A DNA stretch of 20,000 nt from an uncultured virus (IMG/VR IMGVR_UViG_3300024500_000029) (IMGVR_UViG_3300024500_000029), one strand, 5' to 3'. Counted from the first letter of the stretch, positions 489-19,990 are shown. Translations and numbers: made by a program. The notes: a model not told the origin generated them from the letters alone.

Positions 489-731
489 ATGTTAACAACT
501 AAACAAGCACGTGAAATTGTTAATAAACAAATTAAATATTTTCAGAGCTGGACGGATAAAAGTCGCGCTAGTGATGGTGAAGCGATGCGTAATGTTTGTT
601 TTCACGTGGGCTACCTTACTAAAGAAAGTGATATTGCTAAAATTAAAAATAGTCTAGAGCTTGCTGGGCATACTGGCAAGACTAGGTTGATGGGTGGTTA
701 TCTGCGTTTAACCAACTTGGAAATAAATTAA
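489..731 (+). CDS. Hypothetical protein (80 aa)
   Basis: AAGGAG RBS just upstream, own promoter, ATG to TAA. Confidence 0.8.
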   Translation: MLTTKQAREIVNKQIKYFQSWTDKSRASDGEAMRNVCFHVGYLTKESDIAKIKNSLELAGHTGKTRLMGGYLRLTNLEIN

Positions 732-743
732 TTAAAAAAGTAG

Positions 744-772
744 TTGACAGTAATTGCACTAGATGATATAAT
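744..772 (+). promoter_or_regulatory. Consensus sigma70 promoter for the tRNA-Leu/ncRNA transcript
   Basis: TTGACA 744-749, 17-nt spacer, TATAAT 767-772. Confidence 0.85.
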
Positions 773-839
773 ATAAGACTGCACTAAACGATGCAGCCCA
801 AGTAGTAGAAAAAAGTTCTATAACAATTAGTAAAACAAT

Positions 840-923
840 GCCCTGGTGGTGGAATGGTAGACACGCTAGTCTTAGGAACTAGTATCGCAAGGTGTGGGAG
901 TTCGAGTCTCCCCTGGGGCACCA
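840..923 (+). tRNA. trnL: tRNA-Leu (TAG)
   Basis: Cloverleaf; anticodon arm CTAGT-CT TAG GA-ACTAG; long variable arm; TTCGAGT T-loop; encoded CCA. Confidence 0.95.
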
Positions 924-1148
924 TATTAAAATATATTAGGTTACCTAGCCAGTAGGGGGCCTAGAAGAGGATAACCACTTGACGGAGTGGCTCTTGCTAG
1001 GTCTCACGAAACCTTGAGATAATATCAGGAGGACGCTGGAACAACTAGGAACGTAATGTGTGACACAGACAAATCCGTGGACGGCACGGTTGGGCAGAGT
1101 TCAAAGGCTGCGATCTCTGTGAAGCATCCTAATATATTTTAATATGGT
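920..1148 (+). ncRNA. Stem-enclosed structured RNA cassette A
   Basis: Perfect 21-bp inverted repeat ACCATATTAAAATATATTAGG (920-940) / CCTAATATATTTTAATATGGT (1128-1148). Interior has several helices (CCTAG/CTAGG, CCAG/CTGG, CCACT/AGTGG, CCGTG/CACGG, CAGAG/CTCTG). Confidence 0.65.
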
Positions 1149-1314
1149 ACAAGACTGTTCATATAACACTGCAATGGGATATGACAGGCTGCGTAAGTGT
1201 ATTGGCTGGCACAGAAGCCCCAGTAGCGGAGAGTTGAAGCACTTGCAGGTGTGGATGAGTTCCGTGACCGGGCGTCTAGGTTGGGTTCGAATCCCATCGC
1301 ATTTGTTTGCACCA
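1146..1314 (+). ncRNA. tRNA-like RNA with expanded anticodon domain
   Basis: D-arm GTGT/GCAC (1197-1212); anticodon-like stem 1213-1220/1270-1277 enclosing 49 nt; T-arm TGGG-TTCGAAT-CCCA; TGCG/CGCA short acceptor helix; 3' ACCA at 1311-1314. Confidence 0.55.
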
Positions 1315-1448
1315 TATTGAAGCACATTTCTGTCATTGCCGTGCCAGCTTCACGGTGAGTACAAGAGTACGGAAGTAGCTACCCGACAGGTTGTACAAAG
1401 TTACAAGTGGGTTAATGACAGCCCCTTGGGAGTGTGTTTCAATATGGT
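1311..1448 (+). ncRNA. Stem-enclosed structured RNA cassette B
   Basis: 20-bp stem ACCATATTGAAGCACATTTC / GGAGTGTGTTTCAATATGGT with 3 G-U pairs; inner helix TGTCATT/AATGACA. Confidence 0.65.
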
Positions 1449-1450
1449 GG

Positions 1451-1479
1451 TTGACATTAAAAGAATTTAGCTGTAATAT
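1451..1479 (+). promoter_or_regulatory. Sigma70-type promoter for the large ncRNA
   Basis: TTGACA 1451-1456, 17-nt spacer, TAATAT 1474-1479. Confidence 0.7.
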
Positions 1480-1485
1480 AGATAC

Positions 1486-2370
1486 TTAGGGAGTTTAATC
1501 TCTTGTTAGGCGGTTCGCCGTCTAACTAAGGATAAGTGGCGTGAGTCACCCAAAGCAGAATCCTCCTACAGGACTGCGCCAGAGATGGTCCAGTTAAACA
1601 AGCCTGCTCACTACCGCGAGGTAGCGATCACTGATAAGACCGGTGGTTGTAACAATGAAGCTGGTGTAGTGGAAAGAACTTGTATCGACTAGCCCGCAAG
1701 GGAACTAGGGTGCAAGGAAAGTAACAGGTGGTGCTGACTTCACTACAAAACCAACCAGTTAGTTGGTATGAGAAAGGGTAGTGCATTTGTCCAAGGTTTC
1801 GCAGCCAAGGGCTTGTGTGCAGTATGAATGGTACTTGGGGCTGCTGTGAGGCGTCACAAGAATCGTGAAATACTACTGAGTAGCCGGCAGGCGAAAGGTA
1901 CGTGGTGTGTTGTATCGTGTATTCCAAAAGAGTATGCGGCAACTGGAGCAGCACATCATAGTAGGTTGATATAGCTCATTGGTAGAGCAACAGTCCTTTT
2001 AAACTGTAGGCAGTTGGTTCAAATCCAACTATCATTAAACAAAAACGCAAAGACTGCTCCGGTTGTATGTGAAAAGCATCTAACACTTAGGGCGTAAGCT
2101 AACTAAGTTCAGTCTAACCCGCAAGGTGAAACTGATTTGTACTAGAAGATTCGTAGCTCGCAAGGCTTAATGGACCGCAAGTTCAACGGGTAATAAGGTA
2201 CAGAGTAGCATACAATGACAAGACTACTGCCTGTCTTTAAACGGCGATGCTGCAAGCAGACTGGATCACATAGCGATATGGATCTTGTGGATGTCGTGGA
2301 GAAGATTGGCTCGCAAGGCTGACTATAATACCCGAGGTGCTTGTAGTTAAGATGTAATCTCAGTCTTAAC
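1486..2370 (+). ncRNA. Large ornate ncRNA, GOLLD-like (~885 nt)
   Basis: No credible ORF; GC-richer than flanks; many GNRA-capped hairpins (CCC-GCAA-GGG, CTACC-GCGA-GGTAG, GC-GTAA-GC); 13-bp helix 1939-1951/2054-2066; terminal hairpin 2346-2370. Size, phage tRNA-cluster context and internal tRNA-like domain match what is known of GOLLD RNAs. Family not verified by covariance search; ends approximate. Confidence 0.65.
1965..2036 (+). tRNA. tRNA-Lys-like domain embedded in the large ncRNA (8-nt anticodon loop, no CCA)
   Basis: TAGCTCATTGGTAGAGC D-arm; ACAGT-CCTTTTAA-ACTGT anticodon arm; GTTGG-TTCAAAT-CCAAC T-arm; imperfect acceptor GTTGATA/TATCATT. Confidence 0.7.
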
Positions 2371-2461
2371 ACTTTCTAAAACACATTGTAGTGGATTTCA
2401 CAAGTATGAGTCGCATTCTAAAGAGTGCCCTTGAGATTGGATATAGTGTGTTTCAGAAAGT
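2371..2461 (+). ncRNA. Stem-enclosed RNA cassette C
   Basis: ACTTTCTAAAACACATTGTA (2371-2390) pairs with TATAGTGTGTTTCAGAAAGT (2442-2461), with one A-C mismatch and G-U pairs. Same core as cassettes B and E. Confidence 0.6.
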
Positions 2462-2470
2462 CAAGAATCC

Positions 2471-2654
2471 GGTTACTACTTTCCTAAAAGTAGCGTATGG
2501 CACACGACAAGGCCCGGTGGCTAGGGCACCGTTAGCGTTACTAGAGACAGACGACCTAGCAGCGTGGACACTTCGTCGGCCGTCTGCCAAACAGTGTTCG
2601 GACAGGGTAACAACTCCAGGATAGGGGCGACCGTGGAAAAGCGTGGCCTAACCA
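2471..2654 (+). ncRNA. Unknown structured ncRNA (~184 nt)
   Basis: GGTTA/TAACC end pairing and 3' ACCA; hairpins CTACTTT/AAAGTAG, CGGTG/CACCG, CTAG/CTAG; possible pseudoknot CAGACG/CGTCTG. Confidence 0.5.
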
Positions 2655-2655
2655 A

Positions 2656-2814
2656 TATATTAGCAAGTGTTATCGATGAAACATTGGGTATCGTAAACTG
2701 ATCATTTACTATGCGGGCCTAACTGGCGTGGAACAGGTCCTGACATAACCAGCCATACGCTCTGGAACGGAAGCACCGGACTCCTAAATTGGCACGATAG
2801 CACTTACTAATATA
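2656..2814 (+). ncRNA. Stem-enclosed RNA cassette D
   Basis: TATATTAGCAAGTGTTATCG (2656-2675) pairs with CGATAGCACTTACTAATATA (2795-2814); 19 of 20 positions paired, including one G-U. Confidence 0.6.
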
Positions 2815-2826
2815 ATACTAATATAA

Positions 2827-2901
2827 GGTTCCATAGTATATCGGTTAGTACACCGCCCTGTCACGGCAGAAGGAGGGGTTCGACTCCCCTTGGGACCGCC
2901 A
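2827..2901 (+). tRNA. trnD: tRNA-Asp (GTC)
   Basis: GGTTCCA/TGGGACC acceptor, CT GTC AC loop, TTCGACT T-loop, GCCA end. Confidence 0.92.
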
Positions 2902-2976
2902 AGTTTCTCTACACTACATCTAAGCCTTGATAGGTAGGGGAAGGCAGGTGGCTTAGGCTTGCCGAGAGTTTTTATT

Positions 2977-3053
2977 GCACCGTTAGACATCTGGTTGAGG
3001 TCACCACCCTTTCAAGGTGGCTAGAGCGGGTTCGAATCCCCTACGGTGTACCA
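2977..3053 (+). tRNA. trnE: tRNA-Glu (TTC)
   Basis: GCACCGT/ACGGTGT acceptor, CCACC-CT TTC AA-GGTGG arm, CCA end. Confidence 0.92.
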
Positions 3054-3164
3054 AGATGCACAGTGTCGCTTTACGCTGTGGCAGGACGGCCTCTGTATCC
3101 TAGGACTCAAGCCTCTCAGACTGCAACTAGAGTTCTCGCAAAAGAACATAGCAAGATTTAGATT

Positions 3165-3251
3165 GGGTGCTTAGTCCCGTAATGGTATCGGGGGCAGACT
3201 GTAAATCTGTTGTCTTTGGCCTTCTCTGTTCGAATCGGAGAGCACCCACCA
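3165..3251 (+). tRNA. trnY: tRNA-Tyr (GTA)
   Basis: GGGTGCT/AGCACCC acceptor, GCAGA-CT GTA AA-TCTGT arm, long variable arm, CCA end. Confidence 0.92.
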
Positions 3252-3267
3252 AGTTAAGAAAGTAGAT

Positions 3268-3471
3268 ATGTATAAAGTATATTGGACCTACGGTGATGAA
3301 ACCTACGGTCAAGAATTTGAAGATATGACAGAAGCACTTAATTATTGTCAGCATCTTAGAAGTACTGGTAGAAAGTATGTTACTATGTGCAGCGAGCTTG
3401 CTGATATGGTTGGCGAGTTTGGTGTAACGGAAACTGGACCTGGTTATGATTGGAAAAAACGTAGAGATTAA
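3268..3471 (+). CDS. Hypothetical protein (67 aa)
   Basis: Fills the gap between two tRNAs exactly; protein-like composition. Confidence 0.75.
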   Translation: MYKVYWTYGDETYGQEFEDMTEALNYCQHLRSTGRKYVTMCSELADMVGEFGVTETGPGYDWKKRRD

Positions 3472-3472
3472 T

Positions 3473-3550
3473 CCGTCCTTAGCTCAGTAGGATTAGAGCA
3501 TCAGGCTACGAACTTGAAGGTCGGGGGTTCGACTCCCTCAGGACGGTCCA
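3473..3550 (+). tRNA. trnR: tRNA-Arg (ACG)
   Basis: CCGTCCT/AGGACGG acceptor, CT ACG AA loop, CCA end. Confidence 0.93.
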
Positions 3551-3561
3551 AAAATAATTAA

Positions 3562-3807
3562 ATGGATTTAATAAAAAACATTTCAGAGAAAGCCAAGGAG
3601 TCAGTGCCCAAGGGAGTACTGGCTCCTGACCTTTGGATAGAACATTATAATAAAATATTTGCTAGGTTAGTTGTACAGGAATGTCTAGACATTTTAAATG
3701 AACACATTCGGGAAGACAGTAAAGAAGAGAGGGATATATACTTAAAAAGTTTTAGACAGGATCTAAAACAACATTTTGGTCTAGGGAGAAATCAAGACAA
3801 TGAATAG
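3562..3807 (+). CDS. Hypothetical protein (A-x-L-V/I-V-Q-E-C paralog 1)
   Basis: ORF in an overlapping gene chain; FARLVVQECL ... KQHFGL shared with the next ORF. Confidence 0.75.
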   Translation: MDLIKNISEKAKESVPKGVLAPDLWIEHYNKIFARLVVQECLDILNEHIREDSKEERDIYLKSFRQDLKQHFGLGRNQDNE

Positions 3808-4096
3808 CAATCTATTGGACGACCTTATGTATCAAGCAGGTATGACTGCTCAGGGTTGCTGGGACAATCTTGACGATTATGATAAAGAGGCCATACTGAG
3901 ATTGGCTAAATTAATAGTGCAAGAGTGTGTAAAATCTTGCGGTAGCCAGGCAGACAAGGCTAACATCTTAAAAACTTTTGGCCTGCCTGTGGAATCCAAT
4001 GTTAAATATATTAGTCCTGAAGCATCAGGTAGTGTGGACTCTCAATATAGAAGAAGATATAACCTAGCACCCACTCAGGGAGTAAATAATGACTAA
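3800..4096 (+). CDS. Hypothetical protein (paralog 2)
   Basis: LAKLIVQECV ... LKTFGL; overlaps the previous gene's end. Confidence 0.75.
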   Translation: MNSNLLDDLMYQAGMTAQGCWDNLDDYDKEAILRLAKLIVQECVKSCGSQADKANILKTFGLPVESNVKYISPEASGSVDSQYRRRYNLAPTQGVNND

Positions 4097-4238
4097 GAAA
4101 AAAGTCAAAACTGATACTGAACTAGATAAAAAATGTAATGCAGCAATAAAAAGAGTTAATAAACATATAGATACACTTGTTGCACGACATTTAAAAGAGA
4201 TGGGACTTGTCGTAACTGATACTAAAAAAATAATTTAA
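4089..4238 (+). CDS. Small basic hypothetical protein (49 aa, MTKKKVKTDTELDKKCN...)
   Basis: Below the ORF-track cutoff. GGAG RBS; its TAA overlaps the next ATG (TAATG). Confidence 0.6.
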   Translation: MTKKKVKTDTELDKKCNAAIKRVNKHIDTLVARHLKEMGLVVTDTKKII

Positions 4239-5290
4239 TGAAACCCAGTCATTTTTATTTCGACGATAAAATATTAGAACGCGAACAATTACTTTTTAAA
4301 CAGGCAAGATATCTAGGACACGAACTATCTGTCAATAACTATCGCACACTTCCACAGGACAATAGTGGTAGAGTGTTAGTTAAAAACAACAACGGTATAG
4401 AGTGTATAGAAAATGTCTGCCGCCACCGCCAAGCAGTAATGCTAACAGGCAGTGGAGAAACATCAAACATTATTTGTCCATTACACGGCTGGACCTACAA
4501 TCTAGAAGGCGAACTTGTTGGCGCCCCACATTTTGATCCTTGCCCTAATAGACCACTAAGAAAATTTAGCACACAGAGCTGGAACGGTCTATTTTTTGAA
4601 TCAGGTAAGTTTAACATTGTTCGAGATCTTATTGGTATGAGAGCTGGTAAGTATTTTGATTTTAACAATTACCAGTACCATAGCACTCAGGAACATCATT
4701 GTGATTACAACTGGAAGACCTTTATAGAAGTCTACCTAGACGATTATCACGTGGTACCTTTCCATCCTGGCCTTGGTAATTTTGTAGATTGTAATAAACT
4801 AGACTGGCAGTTTGGTGACTGGTATAGTGTGCAGACTGTGGGAGTTCATAATGAATTGCGCACTCCCGGTACACCAGTTTATCGTCGCTGGCACGATGTA
4901 TTAATGAATTATCGTAAGGGACAAATACCTGAATTTGGGGCAATATGGCTGACCATCTATCCTAATGTAATGGTGGAATGGTATCCTGAAGTTTTAGTAA
5001 TTTCTAGTCTGTGGCCGGAAACACCACAGCGCACAAAAAATATTGTTGAATTTTATTATCCCGAGGATATAGCTTTATTTGAACCTGAGTTTGTTCAAGC
5101 TCATCAGGCTGCCTATATGGAAACCTGTTATGAAGATGATGAAATAGCAAGGCGTATGGATCAGGGTAGATGTCATCTTAATAACAATAATTATAGTGAT
5201 TACGGACCTGTACACAATCCTATGGAACTAGGTCTAGAATATTTTTACAAGTATTACAACAATTATGTTTTTGGTTTATTTGGCGAATAA
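4238..5290 (+). CDS. Rieske non-heme iron oxygenase alpha subunit (ring-hydroxylating / choline monooxygenase-like)
   Basis: Rieske ligands CRH ... CPLHGW; catalytic motif NWKTFIEVYLDDYHVVPFH; C-terminal EDDEI. Confidence 0.9.
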   Translation: MKPSHFYFDDKILEREQLLFKQARYLGHELSVNNYRTLPQDNSGRVLVKNNNGIECIENVCRHRQAVMLTGSGETSNIICPLHGWTYNLEGELVGAPHFDPCPNRPLRKFSTQSWNGLFFESGKFNIVRDLIGMRAGKYFDFNNYQYHSTQEHHCDYNWKTFIEVYLDDYHVVPFHPGLGNFVDCNKLDWQFGDWYSVQTVGVHNELRTPGTPVYRRWHDVLMNYRKGQIPEFGAIWLTIYPNVMVEWYPEVLVISSLWPETPQRTKNIVEFYYPEDIALFEPEFVQAHQAAYMETCYEDDEIARRMDQGRCHLNNNNYSDYGPVHNPMELGLEYFYKYYNNYVFGLFGE

Positions 5291-5294
5291 CAAT

Positions 5295-5323
5295 TCGACT
5301 TAATAAACTTTTAGTAGTAAAAT
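5295..5323 (+). promoter_or_regulatory. Putative sigma70 promoter for tRNA-Val/Asn
   Basis: TCGACT, 17-nt spacer, TAAAAT ending 7 nt before the tRNA. Confidence 0.5.
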
Positions 5324-5330
5324 GTTATAT

Positions 5331-5406
5331 GGGAAGTTAGCTCAGTTGGTAGAGCGTCTGCTTTACACGCAGAATGTCGGCGGTTCGATCCCGTCACTTC
5401 CTACCA
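5331..5406 (+). tRNA. trnV: tRNA-Val (TAC)
   Basis: TCTGC-TT TAC AC-GCAGA arm, canonical cloverleaf, CCA end. Confidence 0.95.
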
Positions 5407-5413
5407 ATTTTAT

Positions 5414-5489
5414 TCCAGCGTAGCTCAGTGGTAGTAGCAGTTGACTGTTAATCAATTGGTCGTTGGTTCGATCCCAACCGCTGGAGCCA
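5414..5489 (+). tRNA. trnN: tRNA-Asn (GTT)
   Basis: TCCAGCG/CGCTGGA acceptor, CT GTT AA loop, GCCA end. Confidence 0.95.
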
Positions 5490-5508
5490 ATTTTATAAGG
5501 GGAAAGTA

Positions 5509-5718
5509 ATGCTAATAACGGAAGCTCAGGGTTATAAACTCTATTGTGAAGTCACGCCAGTGGATTTTCCCCCGGCACTTTTTAGAGTGCATATTTTTAC
5601 TAAGTTCGACTGGGCCAAGGACCCCGAGGCCATACAGACCAAGATGGAACTGTTTTTTGATGAGGCTGAACTGGAAGCTTTTAGAACCGCTTTGAGCGTA
5701 CCACGCCTAGATCAGTAA
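5509..5718 (+). CDS. Hypothetical protein (69 aa)
   Basis: AAGGGG RBS; ATG to TAA. Confidence 0.7.
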   Translation: MLITEAQGYKLYCEVTPVDFPPALFRVHIFTKFDWAKDPEAIQTKMELFFDEAELEAFRTALSVPRLDQ

Positions 5719-5737
5719 TTCCCTGTTAAATACAGGT

Positions 5738-5986
5738 ATGAAAGACCTGTTAAAGAATTTACCTCAAATATTAAGTGCTCTTCCCGAAATAGTTAAGTAT
5801 TTAAAATATATACCTATTTTAATGTTACTAGCGGGCATAGGCTATGGGGTATTGTATTATATGGACAATCACAAAGATCCCTACAAATGTGTCAATAACC
5901 ACGTTTTTGAACAGTTAAGAATAGACAGTGATGTCTATGTGTTCAAGGGCGGTACTTGCATTGATGCCAAGGACCTAGAACAATGA
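5738..5986 (+). CDS. Hypothetical membrane protein
   Basis: Hydrophobic segment IPILMLLAGIGYGVLYY. Confidence 0.7.
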   Translation: MKDLLKNLPQILSALPEIVKYLKYIPILMLLAGIGYGVLYYMDNHKDPYKCVNNHVFEQLRIDSDVYVFKGGTCIDAKDLEQ

Positions 5987-6267
5987 TAGTTTACCGTGTG
6001 CCTAGTTCTTTACTAACTGACTATGCTCAAGTTGGCCAACATCAACAAGTGTTAGCCAAGTATAAAAGACAAGATGCTGAATTACAAAATTACAACGAAC
6101 TTGTCAAGCTTATTTCTATGCAGGAAGGTCTTAGGTTATTAAGAAATTACAATTATATGAAGGACACTGAATTTTTAACTCAGTATGCCTATGCCGAAAG
6201 CATCAAGGAACAACGACTAGTACAAAGAGCTGCTAGTGTTGGTCTCTATATAGACAGATACATATAA
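5983..6267 (+). CDS. Hypothetical protein (94 aa)
   Basis: ATGA overlap with the previous gene. Confidence 0.7.
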   Translation: MIVYRVPSSLLTDYAQVGQHQQVLAKYKRQDAELQNYNELVKLISMQEGLRLLRNYNYMKDTEFLTQYAYAESIKEQRLVQRAASVGLYIDRYI

Positions 6268-6288
6268 TATTATCGCGTGTGAGGAAGT

Positions 6289-6374
6289 CGCCTTTACTGA
6301 CGGCGTACAGTAGGATAAATTGTCAGTAGTCTACAGACCCCGTCTTAGCAGTCTCGGACGATAAACGAGACTGC
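6289..6374 (+). ncRNA. Putative pseudoknot plus hairpin element
   Basis: CGCC/GGCG stem whose loop TACTGAC pairs with GTCAGTA (6322-6328); perfect 9-bp hairpin GCAGTCTCG/CGAGACTGC (6348-6374). Confidence 0.4.
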
Positions 6375-6440
6375 ATATTGAAGCACATTGCGATGCCGTT
6401 CCGCGGCGGCGACCACAACGAGAGTAGTGTGTTTCAATAT
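6375..6440 (+). ncRNA. Stem-enclosed RNA cassette E
   Basis: ATATTGAAGCACATTGC / GTAGTGTGTTTCAATAT, 17 bp with 3 G-U pairs; 15 nt of each arm identical to cassette B. Confidence 0.6.
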
Positions 6441-6976
6441 TAATACCAAAGATGGTAAGGTTCAGGTTTAAATCTCATTGAGAATATAGCTCTAAGTTTA
6501 TCCTGGTTATTTTCCACACTGTGTGGTATATCTACTCTAACTAGATGTGGTGTGGTAAGAGCAAGGCCAGCTAATTTAATTTTATTCTCACCGTCCATTT
6601 TGGCAATATTGTTACCGTAGGATTGATGACTACGATATTCCACAATATCTACATTATCCCACCAGATCATTTCCGACTGATCGCAGTTTAGTAGTGGTAA
6701 GTTAAGACTAAAAATTCTGGAAACTTCCGAATTTCCGTCTACGTGGATGTATAACCCATCTCTAGGTGGAGTTACAAAAAATCTTCCTACATCTAGTACA
6801 AGATTGTTTGCGTTAAAAAACTTTACTAGTTCTGGGCAATATTGTTCTATAAGATCGTGACTGGTAGCCTTGGTGTTTGTAGAATCGAAGTCTGTGATAG
6901 TCTTGTACATAAGATCTATCAGCTTAGGTTTAATAATTTGAAAGTCAGGAAGGTCTATGGCTTTGTAGGGAAGCAT
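6440..6976 (-). CDS. Cupin / 2OG-Fe(II) oxygenase-like protein
   Basis: IHVDG (HxD) ... LNLP ... IPHSVEN ... RAIFSMRF. Confidence 0.65.
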   Translation of the reverse strand: MLPYKAIDLPDFQIIKPKLIDLMYKTITDFDSTNTKATSHDLIEQYCPELVKFFNANNLVLDVGRFFVTPPRDGLYIHVDGNSEVSRIFSLNLPLLNCDQSEMIWWDNVDIVEYRSHQSYGNNIAKMDGENKIKLAGLALTTPHLVRVDIPHSVENNQDKLRAIFSMRFKPEPYHLWY

Positions 6977-6981
6977 AAAAA

Positions 6982-6989
6982 TATTTATA
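6982..6989 (-). promoter_or_regulatory. T4-like late promoter motif TATAAATA
   Basis: The minus strand reads TATAAATA-TTTTT-ATG, directly into the 6976 start; no RBS. Confidence 0.55.
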
Positions 6990-7014
6990 GTGAGTTGTTA
7001 TAGTAAAAGAAAAT

Positions 7015-7090
7015 GGGGGTGTAGCTCAGCTGGGAGAGCAGGACCTTTGCAAGGTCAAGGTAGCGGGTTCGAGTCCTGTCACCTCCACCA
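7015..7090 (+). tRNA. trnA: tRNA-Ala (TGC)
   Basis: G3:U70 pair, TT TGC AA loop, CCA end. Confidence 0.95.
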
Positions 7091-7106
7091 TTTTAAGGAG
7101 TGTATT

Positions 7107-7502
7107 ATGTGGATAGAAAATGTAGCCGCCATTGATGTCAAAAACGGGCATCATTTCGATGCTGGCCCCAATAGTATGTTGATACAAATAGCCGATCCTG
7201 CAGGCTGGTTTCCTACCCCCAAACACTCTTTTAAAGAAGTCCATAGGTTTGAATTTCTAGATGCCGACGATCAAGATGGCTTCCCTGAAGAAACCAAGAT
7301 ATCTAGAACACAGGCACAGGATATCACTTTGTTACTTAAACGTGCAGTGTCTGACAGAATGAATGTAGTAGTACATTGCACAGCAGGTCTCTGTCGTAGT
7401 GGTGCAGTTTGTGAAGTAGGTATTGTTCTAGGACTAGCTGATACTGGAAAGTTTAGACTACCCAATGTGCGTGTCAAAAAGTTTTTGTTGGATGCCATTT
7501 AA
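7107..7502 (+). CDS. Cys-based (PTP/dual-specificity-like) phosphatase
   Basis: HCTAGLCRS CX5R motif; AAGGAG RBS before ATG 7107. The track's 6990 start runs through tRNA-Ala. Confidence 0.8.
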   Translation: MWIENVAAIDVKNGHHFDAGPNSMLIQIADPAGWFPTPKHSFKEVHRFEFLDADDQDGFPEETKISRTQAQDITLLLKRAVSDRMNVVVHCTAGLCRSGAVCEVGIVLGLADTGKFRLPNVRVKKFLLDAI

Positions 7503-11407: not shown

Positions 11408-11881
11408 ATGGAAAGAAAACTTGATATCGATGCAGTAAAAAAATTTATAGACCAACAAAGTGATAGTACCAAAATTTATATCGGTGCAGACAGTGCCAGA
11501 TATAAAGTTGGTAATAAGTGGTATGCTGATTATACACTGGCTGTGGTAGTGCATATTGATGGTTGTCACGGTTGTAAGATTTTTGGTGAAGTACAGACAG
11601 AAGTTGATTATGATCACAAAGCCAGCCGTCCCAGTATGCGTCTTATGAACGAAGTCTACAAGGTGGCAGAACTCTATCAGAAGTTGGTAGACGTAATTGG
11701 TGATCGTGAGGTACAAATACATCTTGACATTAATCCTGATGAGCGCCATAATAGCAGCATTGTGATACAACAGGCTGTGGGTTATATTCGTGGTGTGTGC
11801 AATGTGATACCAATGGTGAAGCCTCGTGCCTTCGCTGCTAGTTATGCAGCAGATAGGTTAAAAGAAGTCCTAGCAGCCTAG
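11408..11881 (+). CDS. RNase H-like YkuK (DUF458) family protein
   Basis: IYIGADS, RLMNEV, IHLDIN, VKPRAFAASYAAD motifs. Confidence 0.8.
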   Translation: MERKLDIDAVKKFIDQQSDSTKIYIGADSARYKVGNKWYADYTLAVVVHIDGCHGCKIFGEVQTEVDYDHKASRPSMRLMNEVYKVAELYQKLVDVIGDREVQIHLDINPDERHNSSIVIQQAVGYIRGVCNVIPMVKPRAFAASYAADRLKEVLAA

Positions 11882-11887
11882 AAATAA

Positions 11888-11962
11888 ACTTCGGTGGCAG
11901 AATGGTTGATGCTCCCATCTCTAAAATGGGCTAAATGGGTTCGAATCCCATCCGAAGTACCA
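11888..11962 (+). tRNA. Amber suppressor tRNA (anticodon CTA)
   Basis: ACTTCGG/CCGAAGT acceptor, CCCAT-CT CTA AA-ATGGG anticodon arm, ATGGG-TTCGAAT-CCCAT T-arm, ACCA end. Confidence 0.88.
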
Positions 11963-18967: not shown

Positions 18968-19990
18968 ATGAAACCCATTGTGGAAATTATTGCTGGCAGC
19001 TATCGCGATCAAGACTGTACTGGTATGCAGTTTGAACTAAAACAGCCCTTTACCAACACAGGCAAAAACGCATTTATTGCTGTCAAAAATGATGGACAGA
19101 TTCCCGGCGGTCCAAAAGTGATCCGCATTAATGTTAAAGGTCCTATGGACTATCAATTTACAAATGGTAATTTTGTTGTAGAAGACAACACCAAGCCCAC
19201 ACAGGCTGCACCAGCTGAGACAGACCAAGAAGCAATAGCTCGTATTCGCGAACGTTTTGAAATCCTGCACGAAATGACCAAGGCTGCTACTAACGGCGAC
19301 ATTCGTGCTATGATTGTAAGTGGTCCTCCTGGTGTTGGTAAGAGCTTTGGTGTTGAGCAAGAAATTGAAAAAGCCCAACTTATAGATCAACTTGCTGGAC
19401 GTCGCCTACGTGCAGAGGTAGTAAAAGGCAGTGCCAGCCCAATTGGTCTGTATCAAACTCTCTACAAGTATTCAGATTCGAACTGTGTTATCGTGTTTGA
19501 TGATTGCGACAGTATCCTACTAGACGACGTCGCACTTAACTTGCTTAAAGGTGCTCTGGATTCCGGTAAGAAGCGCAAGATCAGCTGGTTGAGCGAGAGC
19601 CGTGTACTCAAGGACGAAGGTATCCCTTCAACATTTGATTTTAAAGGTAGTGTCATCTTTATCACTAACCTTAAGTTTGACAAGATGAAATCGCAAAAAC
19701 TGCGTGATCACTTGGATGCACTACAATCACGTTGCCACTATCTAGATCTTACCCTGGATACTCAGCGTGACAAAATCCTGCGTATTAAGCAGATTGCAGG
19801 TGACGGTGTATTGTTTGATGGTTATGATTTCAGCAAAGAAGAACAGGAAGAAATCATTGAGTATATGGATGAAACCAAGGACAACCTGCGCGAACTAAGT
19901 CTGCGTATGGCTCTCAAGATTGCTGACCTCCGCAAGAGCTTCCCTAATAAATGGAAGGCAATGGATAATACTACCTGTGTCAAGGTATAA
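18968..19990 (+). CDS. P-loop/AAA-type ATPase
   Basis: Walker A GPPGVGKS, Walker B IVFDD, sensor FITN, ALQSR arginine finger; AAGGAG RBS. Confidence 0.85.
   Translation: MKPIVEIIAGSYRDQDCTGMQFELKQPFTNTGKNAFIAVKNDGQIPGGPKVIRINVKGPMDYQFTNGNFVVEDNTKPTQAAPAETDQEAIARIRERFEILHEMTKAATNGDIRAMIVSGPPGVGKSFGVEQEIEKAQLIDQLAGRRLRAEVVKGSASPIGLYQTLYKYSDSNCVIVFDDCDSILLDDVALNLLKGALDSGKKRKISWLSESRVLKDEGIPSTFDFKGSVIFITNLKFDKMKSQKLRDHLDALQSRCHYLDLTLDTQRDKILRIKQIAGDGVLFDGYDFSKEEQEEIIEYMDETKDNLRELSLRMALKIADLRKSFPNKWKAMDNTTCVKV

Follow-up and report, generated by a model that had tools for sequence, protein, structure and literature searches.

An uncatalogued RNA hairpin family closes around unrelated cargoes in phage tRNA islands

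The tRNA islands of phages are usually read as plain lists of tRNA genes. That of phage T4 also encodes and co-transcribes small stable structured RNAs (species 1 and 2) of unknown function, and we know of no closing helix shared by these RNAs. Helices that enclose a released RNA are found among RNase III stems, of which bacterial rRNA operons and the early transcripts of phage T7 provide examples: sequences flanking the released RNA form a helix of about two turns, in which a double staggered cut is expected. Here we describe a family of RNA hairpins in a 20,000-nucleotide stretch of an uncultured virus (IMG/VR IMGVR_UViG_3300024500_000029), hereafter the window, which corresponds to bases 22390-42389, read on the minus strand, of an 88,243-bp record with a CheckV completeness of 25%. 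Like the T4 species, with which we compare them by description only, the members are non-tRNA structured RNAs in a phage tRNA cluster. Like RNase III stems, they have a helix of about two turns formed by sequences flanking an RNA, for which a double staggered cut is predicted. Unlike RNase III stems, their helix is nearly constant across many phages, begins in the CCA of a tRNA and encloses freely swapped cargoes, and the phages carry no RNase III domain that we could detect (0 of 13 records).

PeSL cassettes of T4-type phages are reported (PMC2839356, PMC4122927) to be stem-loop motifs that are repeated through a myovirus genome and serve as crossover points for unrelated modules. Conserved short motifs appear to act as module crossover points here as well, and some of our cassettes lie directly before promoters. 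PeSLs, however, are direct repeats between protein genes, combining a terminator with a promoter, whereas the arms of the present elements are inverted around an RNA cargo and their pairing is selected. In the window a promoter-like site follows only some copies (cassette B and, overlapping it, element D), and the stems are not followed by a T-run. That an endonuclease acting on double-stranded RNA (dsRNA) in bacteria can read sequence has a precedent in Mini-III RNase, which cuts with a preference for ACC^U, its natural site being a helix of the 23S rRNA ends (PMC4357697). That motif starts with ACC, as our stems do, but they have ACCA/UGGU where Mini-III has ACCU/AGGU, and the link is by analogy only. 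Archaeal circular RNAs, for which one report names C/D box sRNAs and rRNA precursors, arise from bulge-helix-bulge stems (PMC9014305). There, too, inverted repeats pair around an RNA; excision and ligation follow, to which a single head-to-tail contig may correspond in our data. Two 3-nt bulges 4 bp apart, the mark of the bulge-helix-bulge, are not seen in our stems, whose helix is continuous in folds and in the alignment.

Five stem-closed elements had been claimed for the + strand of the window in an earlier note, made from the sequence alone, and all five helices are present. Four of them (cassettes A, B, C and E) and two further members upstream of the window in the same genome are one RNA hairpin family. 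Cassette B (1310..1449) has the canonical stem, ACCAUAUUGAAGCACAUU paired with AGUGUGUUUCAAUAUGGU, around a 102-nt payload; its arms (1310-1326 and 1433-1449) are 94% complementary and, with G-U, form about 20 pairs in the fold. Cassette E (6374..6441; payload 36 nt) has the canonical stem minus the outer ACC/GGU pairs, and the two 14-mers that it had been said to share with B are identical in both. Cassette C (2371..2461; payload 57 nt) has diverged outer pairs, ACUUUCUAAAACACAUU/AGUGUGUUUCAGAAAGU; C and E (6375-6440) each fold as a single closed hairpin. The arms of cassette A (920..1148; payload 187 nt), at 920-940 and 1128-1148, form 21 bp with 100% complementarity. By eye they stand in the family register, with 14 of 18 positions identical per arm, and the four transitions per arm relative to B and E all preserve pairing, just as had been described. 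Fold z-scores, computed against dinucleotide shuffles, are -7.9 for A, -5.7 for B, -5.2 for C, -3.8 for E and -3.3 for D (2650-2820). A covariance model built from the family (R1) matches B (51.8 bits), C (41.1 bits) and E (49.9 bits) in this genome at E<=1, but neither A nor D.

Element D (2656..2814) has arms at 2656-2675 and 2795-2814 that are 90% complementary and a payload at 2676-2794. It had been taken for a more divergent member; the closing stem is real, but since R1 misses it and homologues of its payload sit in a different stem, D is another kind of closed RNA, separate from the hairpin family. The payload is itself a conserved RNA, which in other phages has a different closing stem and lies directly after a 51-nt cassette (L005 1508-1667).

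The helix recurs widely. A scan of IMG/VR viral contigs with the 16-mer of the 5' arm returned at least 121 stretches. A second scan, designed to avoid selection by the canonical sequence, held no more than the invariant bases constant, with seven stem positions free to vary, and returned at least 124. All counts of elements, stems, payloads and docking sites across loci given here are among the matches listed in one or other of these scans. A matching 3' arm lies within 700 nt of the 5' arm in 108 of the 121 first-scan loci and is absent in 13, a recurrence far beyond chance; in those 108 loci the same arms enclose other inserts, which bears out the proposal of a shared closing stem around unrelated payloads. 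The consensus pairs ACCAUAUUGAAGCACAUU with AGUGUGUUUCAAUAUGGU in helices of 16-21 bp, a length that does suit an RNase III-type enzyme, as had been suggested.

The helix is under selection. We assembled an alignment of 78 sequences (MAFFT) and a set of 112 stems picked by a pairing filter (at least 16 of 18 pairs, G-U counted as a pair). Across the 78 sequences, 96.1% of cells are paired, a figure raised by the filter, and 13 of the 18 pairs have changed on both sides. Double-changed cells number 77, against 12 +/- 3 in shuffles, and none of 500 shuffles reaches 77; when the register is slid, only 30-52% of cells pair. The free-position scan gives the same picture: among 143 unique matches, all seven free positions are paired in 70 (26.5 with shuffled partners), at least six in 135 and no more than five in eight (about 51 in shuffles).

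The helix also works on the tRNA strand only. The earlier inference of RNA-level pairing on the + strand stands, because the wobble pairs of the 112 stems fit that strand alone: position 12 is G-U in 46, A-U in 39 and G-C in 27 but never A-C, and position 17 is U-G in 86, U-A in 14, C-G in 10 and C-A in one. Other positions hardly vary. A4-U and A11-U occur in 112 of 112 stems, A16-U in 110, A6-U in 108 and U5-A in 107, and these near-fixed bases exceed what pairing needs, which suggests a reader that recognizes sequence. Two stem classes can be distinguished, UUGAAGCAC with G9-C and UAAAAACAC, the latter often with an A-C mismatch at position 9. In the second-scan sample the commonest stem variant has the A-C mismatch at this central position, where the canonical class has G-C.

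Within this constant frame, cargo turnover is much faster than that of the frame itself. Alignment-based clustering, which replaced a k-mer single-linkage procedure that over-merged, places 172 unique payloads of the first sample in 117 clusters, while none of 9,516 shuffled pairs passes. Behind 43 homologous tRNA-Lys(UUU) genes (one cluster, with 12 stem variants) there are 40 unique payloads in 36 clusters. Payloads are 25-207 nt long, and none is shorter than 25 nt even though 15 nt or more was allowed. Some cargoes are clearly structured RNAs: the payload of A is one of a family of multi-helix RNAs of about 190-207 nt, conserved and covarying, in which 30 of 69 predicted pairs show compensatory changes among five homologues, and several small families keep a loop, for example GUUGAUCGC, while the stem covaries. 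A T-loop-like motif occurs in 11 of 172 payloads and in none of the shuffles. A hammerhead-like reading of the ...CCGAUGAGU payloads was set aside, as the order of the elements is wrong by eye and Rfam gives no match. Complementarity of the cargoes of this genome to its own 88 kb is at chance level (longest matches 10-12 nt, plus one AT-rich 15-mer), and antisense action on the phage's own genome was rejected as a cargo function.

Cassettes and their neighbours are exchanged as modules. One and the same family of payloads can recur in different flanks and within different stems; a 51-nt family, for example, follows a tRNA in L012 and non-tRNA sequence in L005 and L006, and the payload family of E recurs in L029, L051, L054, L081 and L087. 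In L076, a cassette 98% identical to B directly follows tRNA-Leu, whereas in the window cassette A and the adjoining segment X1 (1149..1314, + strand) are inserted between tRNA-Leu and B, with GCACCATATT repeated at the bounds. Patchy presence, which the earlier note had named as a possible sign of miniature inverted-repeat transposable elements (MITEs), was thus found, as were gain and loss of modules at the arms, but target-site duplications are absent and the interiors bear no relation to one another; judged from these comparisons, the pattern looks like recombination between arms rather than MITE transposition.

The cassettes are strongly associated with tRNA genes. In first-scan loci, 509 tRNAs share the strand of the element and 21 have the opposite orientation; of 116 unique elements, 40 overlap a tRNA CCA and 16 abut the first base of the following tRNA. 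Docking is seen at 79 of the 134 places in the second sample, on tRNA-Lys(UUU) in 43 cases, Gln(UUG) in 13, Glu(UUC) in 10, Leu(UAG) in six and seven others once each. The first three, which account for 66 of the 79 docked elements, have a 2-thiouridine wobble modification in common and are targets of anticodon nucleases, although shared ancestry may explain part of the bias. In the window, the docking on 3' ends of structured RNAs proposed earlier is seen for A (tRNA-Leu), C (GOLLD RNA) and D (segment X2). The ACCA (920-923) that ends tRNA-Leu(UAG) (840..923, + strand) supplies the first four pairs of stem A, and stem B overlaps the ACCA closing X1 at 1149-1314, so that both stems do include an ACCA as claimed, the status of X1 as an RNA being uncertain. 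C starts 5 nt past the end of the GOLLD match (2366). The proposal fails for E, which adjoins a small hairpin downstream of an ORF, not a demonstrated RNA; like E, some members elsewhere lack the ACC/GGU outer pairs and lie behind non-tRNA sequence. Of the two members upstream of the window, one is docked at the CCA end of a tRNA-Lys(UUU), and 52 nt separate the other from the tRNA-Ser that follows it. Several elements in other loci are directly followed by TTGACA.

The hairpin family is uncatalogued, as had been supposed. No cassette matches Rfam 15 at the gathering score, nor at E<=1 across 700-7200, and in nine further loci only tRNAs and one group I intron are found while the cassettes remain unmatched; a literature search, which did not cover supplements, found no description. 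The covariance-model search that the earlier note had proposed finds one to four elements per record in 13 of 13 larger carrier records. Judged by the large terminase, the isolates closest to this phage are Pseudomonas phage PA5oct (55.6%), Sinorhizobium phage Phosso and Agrobacterium phage Atu_ph07 (range 51-56% identity); none of the three has an element by pattern, where matches are at control level, or by R1 (0 candidates). The terminase of four of five large carriers, by comparison, is 59-67% identical to that of this phage, and this sharing indicates that the carriers are a broad but related phage group; one of them is a complete 150-kb genome. The canonical form has no match in 185,579 species genomes, and a degenerate form matches on three contigs of metagenome-assembled genomes. 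One of these metagenome-assembled genomes, assigned to Crocinitomicaceae, includes a further contig (L165, G007:C15; 7,552 bp, found with R1), which holds 21 tRNA genes and eight cassettes and is probably a mis-binned phage fragment. Two candidate partners were rejected. GOLLD RNA, considered as an obligate one, is present in only one of the five large carriers, and a YkuK-like RNase H-like protein, for which the earlier note had envisaged a role, in two of them; nothing that we found speaks for such a role.

We propose, with a probability of roughly 0.45, that the helix marks where polycistronic tRNA/ncRNA precursors are processed and closed, a host enzyme specific for dsRNA doing the cutting, and that its arms are crossover points. 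In this model the hairpins would be transcribed on the tRNA strand within long multi-tRNA/ncRNA transcripts, each helix starting in the CCA of the preceding tRNA or tRNA-like RNA and closing around a cargo of 25 to about 200 nt. It would offer a common recognition and cutting site to a dsRNA endonuclease of the RNase III type, presumably the host's because the phages encode none. A cut in mid-helix would release the upstream tRNA with a short tail, which exonucleases could trim to the CCA, and would at the same time free the cargo as a stem-capped small RNA. Because both arms are alike everywhere, they could serve as portable homology, recombination at the arms swapping cargoes and adding or removing modules made of a cassette and the next RNA. 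That the helix is cut, by which enzyme, and that the cargo has a function are inferences on our part. A tRNA whose CCA lies in an 18-bp helix cannot be charged, and the helix must therefore be removed at some point. Escherichia coli RNase III in vivo is reported to make a double cut in an intramolecular stem and to prefer G-C between the cuts (PMC6212723). By analogy, the length and shape of our helix fit this rule, and 67 of 112 stems have G-C at positions 8-9, which would lie between such cuts. Pairing of a 3' arm with the 5' arm of the next cassette, enclosing the tRNA, is possible on paper (77% complementary) but disfavored, because the four compensatory changes of A keep its own two arms perfectly paired and weaken the pairing of its 3' arm with the 5' arm of B.

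RNA libraries bear on this model to a limited extent. The stretch or part of it is contained in 18 RNA-library runs from riverine metagenomes, and we examined assembled contigs from four; such contigs cannot show RNA ends or prove transcription, and DNA can occur in such libraries. One linear contig spans 912-1624, running through A, X1 and B into the GOLLD unit, and another 854-1312. Their depths of 66 and 104, against about 4-12 on neighboring ORFs, are per-contig values and only suggestive, as are those of GOLLD contigs in four RNA libraries, which range per contig from hundreds to thousands. In one run there is a single contig in which position 1138 is followed by 926, the joint being ambiguous over 4 nt (TTAA). 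Since 926-930 pair with 1138-1142, the ends of this joint are at the same level of stem A, which is weakly consistent with a staggered cut between positions 9|10 leaving a 2-nt 3' overhang, followed by ligation. Coverage gaps (the flanks of A in run X4; E, which is outside the long contigs listed for three runs) prove nothing and were not used.

Several points weigh against processing by a host dsRNase. The back-joint could equally reflect a tandem duplication in a near-identical strain, and it was seen in one of the four runs at a likeness setting of 90, where such joints are less reliable. The linear form through A, X1 and B occurs in two of the four runs, so that excision, if it occurs, is incomplete. 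Cleavage itself was never observed, the RNA data being assembled contigs. The RNase III domain PF14622 is found in none of the 13 carrier records, in a search whose control was positive in eight of 14 model genomes, and to our knowledge bacterial RNase III does not require so constant a sequence. Many elements (E and the 51-nt family among them) lie off CCA ends, and maturation of tRNA 3' ends cannot then be the sole role of the helix. Payloads alone fold barely better than shuffles, with a mean z of -0.51 and 61 of 172 above 0. Finally, the pairing filter inflates the percentage of paired cells and the G-U count in the 78- and 112-sequence sets, but not the excess of double changes.

It is unlikely, in our view, that the helix is instead left uncut, as a clamp or insulator that hides the CCA, separates neighboring RNAs so that they fold independently and blocks 3' exonucleases at unit ends, the cargo being a tolerated loop. 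The helices do persist in a fold of the whole precursor (836-1460), linear contigs do cross A, X1 and B, and the weak average folding of payloads is what one would expect of a loop. The places of B and D immediately before promoter-like sites, and of TTGACA after several elements elsewhere, would likewise suit an insulator at the end of a unit. A loop of no importance, however, should often shrink, yet the lower bound of 25 nt holds throughout the matches listed; payload families are conserved and covarying; the invariant bases of the helix go beyond the needs of stability; and a tRNA that is to be charged must have its CCA freed.

Those invariant bases lead to a further reading, which we also hold to be doubtful: that the helix is a handle for a sequence-specific dsRNA-binding protein, of phage or host, which loads, stabilizes or delivers the cargoes as decoys, aptamers or guides in an arms race. 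The invariant or near-invariant pairs at positions 4, 5, 6, 11 and 16, together with the conserved wobbles, would be its binding determinants. The 36 cargo clusters in 43 elements behind a constant frame of tRNA-Lys and stem form a pattern typical of conflict loci, and loops such as GUUGAUCGC are kept while their stems covary. No candidate protein co-occurs with the elements, however (YkuK-like in two of five carriers, RtcB in 0 of 13, an RNA-ligase domain in six of 13), payload complementarity to the 88 kb does not exceed chance and no target is known. The earlier suggestion that the payloads are decoys against host defence accordingly found no support. A handle of this kind would, moreover, be compatible with processing.

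Lower still we rank the possibility that the helix signals excision followed by ligation, the cargoes being cut at paired stem positions and sealed as small circular RNAs that are exchanged through the arms in the manner of an integron; the hypervariable ones behind tRNA-Lys, tRNA-Gln and tRNA-Glu would act as fast-evolving decoys or guides against host defences. The back-joint at stem A is a weak hint of a circular RNA. RtcB is found in none of the 13 carriers, and the RNA_ligase domain, present in only six of 13, shows no consistent link. The T4 Rnl1 family is likewise absent from all 13, but its control was positive nowhere, which makes this search uninformative. A DUF6267 protein of this genome was dropped as a candidate, having no PDB relative and not being the same ORF as the ligase matches.

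Least probable is a DNA-level element, in which the inverted repeats would bound a mobile element or serve for recombination, in MITE- or attC-like fashion, and the RNA hairpin would be incidental: relatives do differ in presence and absence exactly at the arms, the same 51-nt cassette does occur in different flanks (L012 against L005/L006) and single-stranded DNA hairpins tolerate G-T pairs, but there is no target-site duplication, the flanking ACC/GGT lies within the helix, copies in one genome have unrelated interiors, co-orientation with the tRNAs is strict, the helix begins inside the CCA, a scan of 106 ORFs in the 88-kb record turned up neither a transposase nor an integrase domain and the canonical form is absent from the 185,579 species genomes. 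The ORF scan, of a record that is 25% complete, did find a TnsA-like endonuclease N-terminal domain as the only exception among transposase domains. The arm sequence is unlike the attC core. Bacterial Y RNA (YrlA) was also considered; there is no Rfam match to it, and no TROVE domain among the 106 ORFs.

These tRNA islands form a modular system, in which giant freshwater phages exchange well over 100 unrelated small RNAs, all carried by one conserved RNA frame. If this frame does signal processing, as we propose, it shows how phages have long tRNA/ncRNA precursors, including GOLLD neighbors, matured by host enzymes. If the cargoes are active, their turnover behind tRNA-Lys, a tRNA that host anticodon nucleases attack, points to a layer of the conflict between phage and host that is made of RNA and has not been described, and circular cargoes, if real, would be a phage counterpart of the archaeal circular RNAs. 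The constant stem is a search handle for many new phage small RNAs and could be a portable scaffold for RNA expression.

The genome around the cassettes is that of a large T4-like myovirus, with terminase, gp32, UvsX, UvsW and sheath identified by domain scan. The window contains 11 tRNA genes, and 18 more lie just upstream of it. A sigma-70-like promoter on the + strand at 744..772, upstream of tRNA-Leu, agrees with consensus at 12 of 12 positions and is likely the start of the first RNA operon. Segment X1 has a T-arm-like stretch and GCACCA at its end, but by itself it gives no fold signal (z 0.03), and none of the fetched loci contains a homologue; whether it is a degenerate tRNA-like RNA or a spacer is uncertain. 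A 58-codon ORF at 1144-1320, whose ATG is within the 3' arm of A, runs across X1; no ribosome-binding site is visible by eye, and coding is possible. A second promoter-like site (1451..1479, + strand; 10 of 12 positions) begins 2 nt past stem B, upstream of GOLLD. The conserved 3' domain of GOLLD RNA (1902..2366, + strand) matches Rfam with 214.4 bits (cut-off 150) and contains a tRNA-like gene at 1965-2037 with an anticodon that ARAGORN cannot read; the variable 5' domain probably starts at about 1490. Segment X2 (2462..2655, + strand), upstream of D, is a conserved RNA of about 190 nt with an AACCA end; it has homologues of 71-87% identity in five other phage loci (L076, L053, L063, L116 and L102) and no Rfam match. 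The promoter-like site at 2789-2816 is overlapped by the 3' arm of D.

Some further observations concern the surroundings. At 11408-11962 a YkuK-type RNase H-like protein (PF04308) is encoded; immediately after it comes a tRNA of the suppressor type, whose anticodon is CUA and which ARAGORN calls tRNA-Pyl. Near the end of the window, 10 positions within 19617-19964 are unlike the stored genome record. In locus L003, a group I intron (Rfam, 56.9 bits) lies on the minus strand at 154-351, beside an array of tRNAs and cassettes. A tRNA-Tyr-like sequence at 3165-3251 of the window has, by eye, a GUA anticodon, a long variable arm and an ACCA end; ARAGORN and Rfam do not call it, and stretches in L053 and L056 match it at 91-95% identity.

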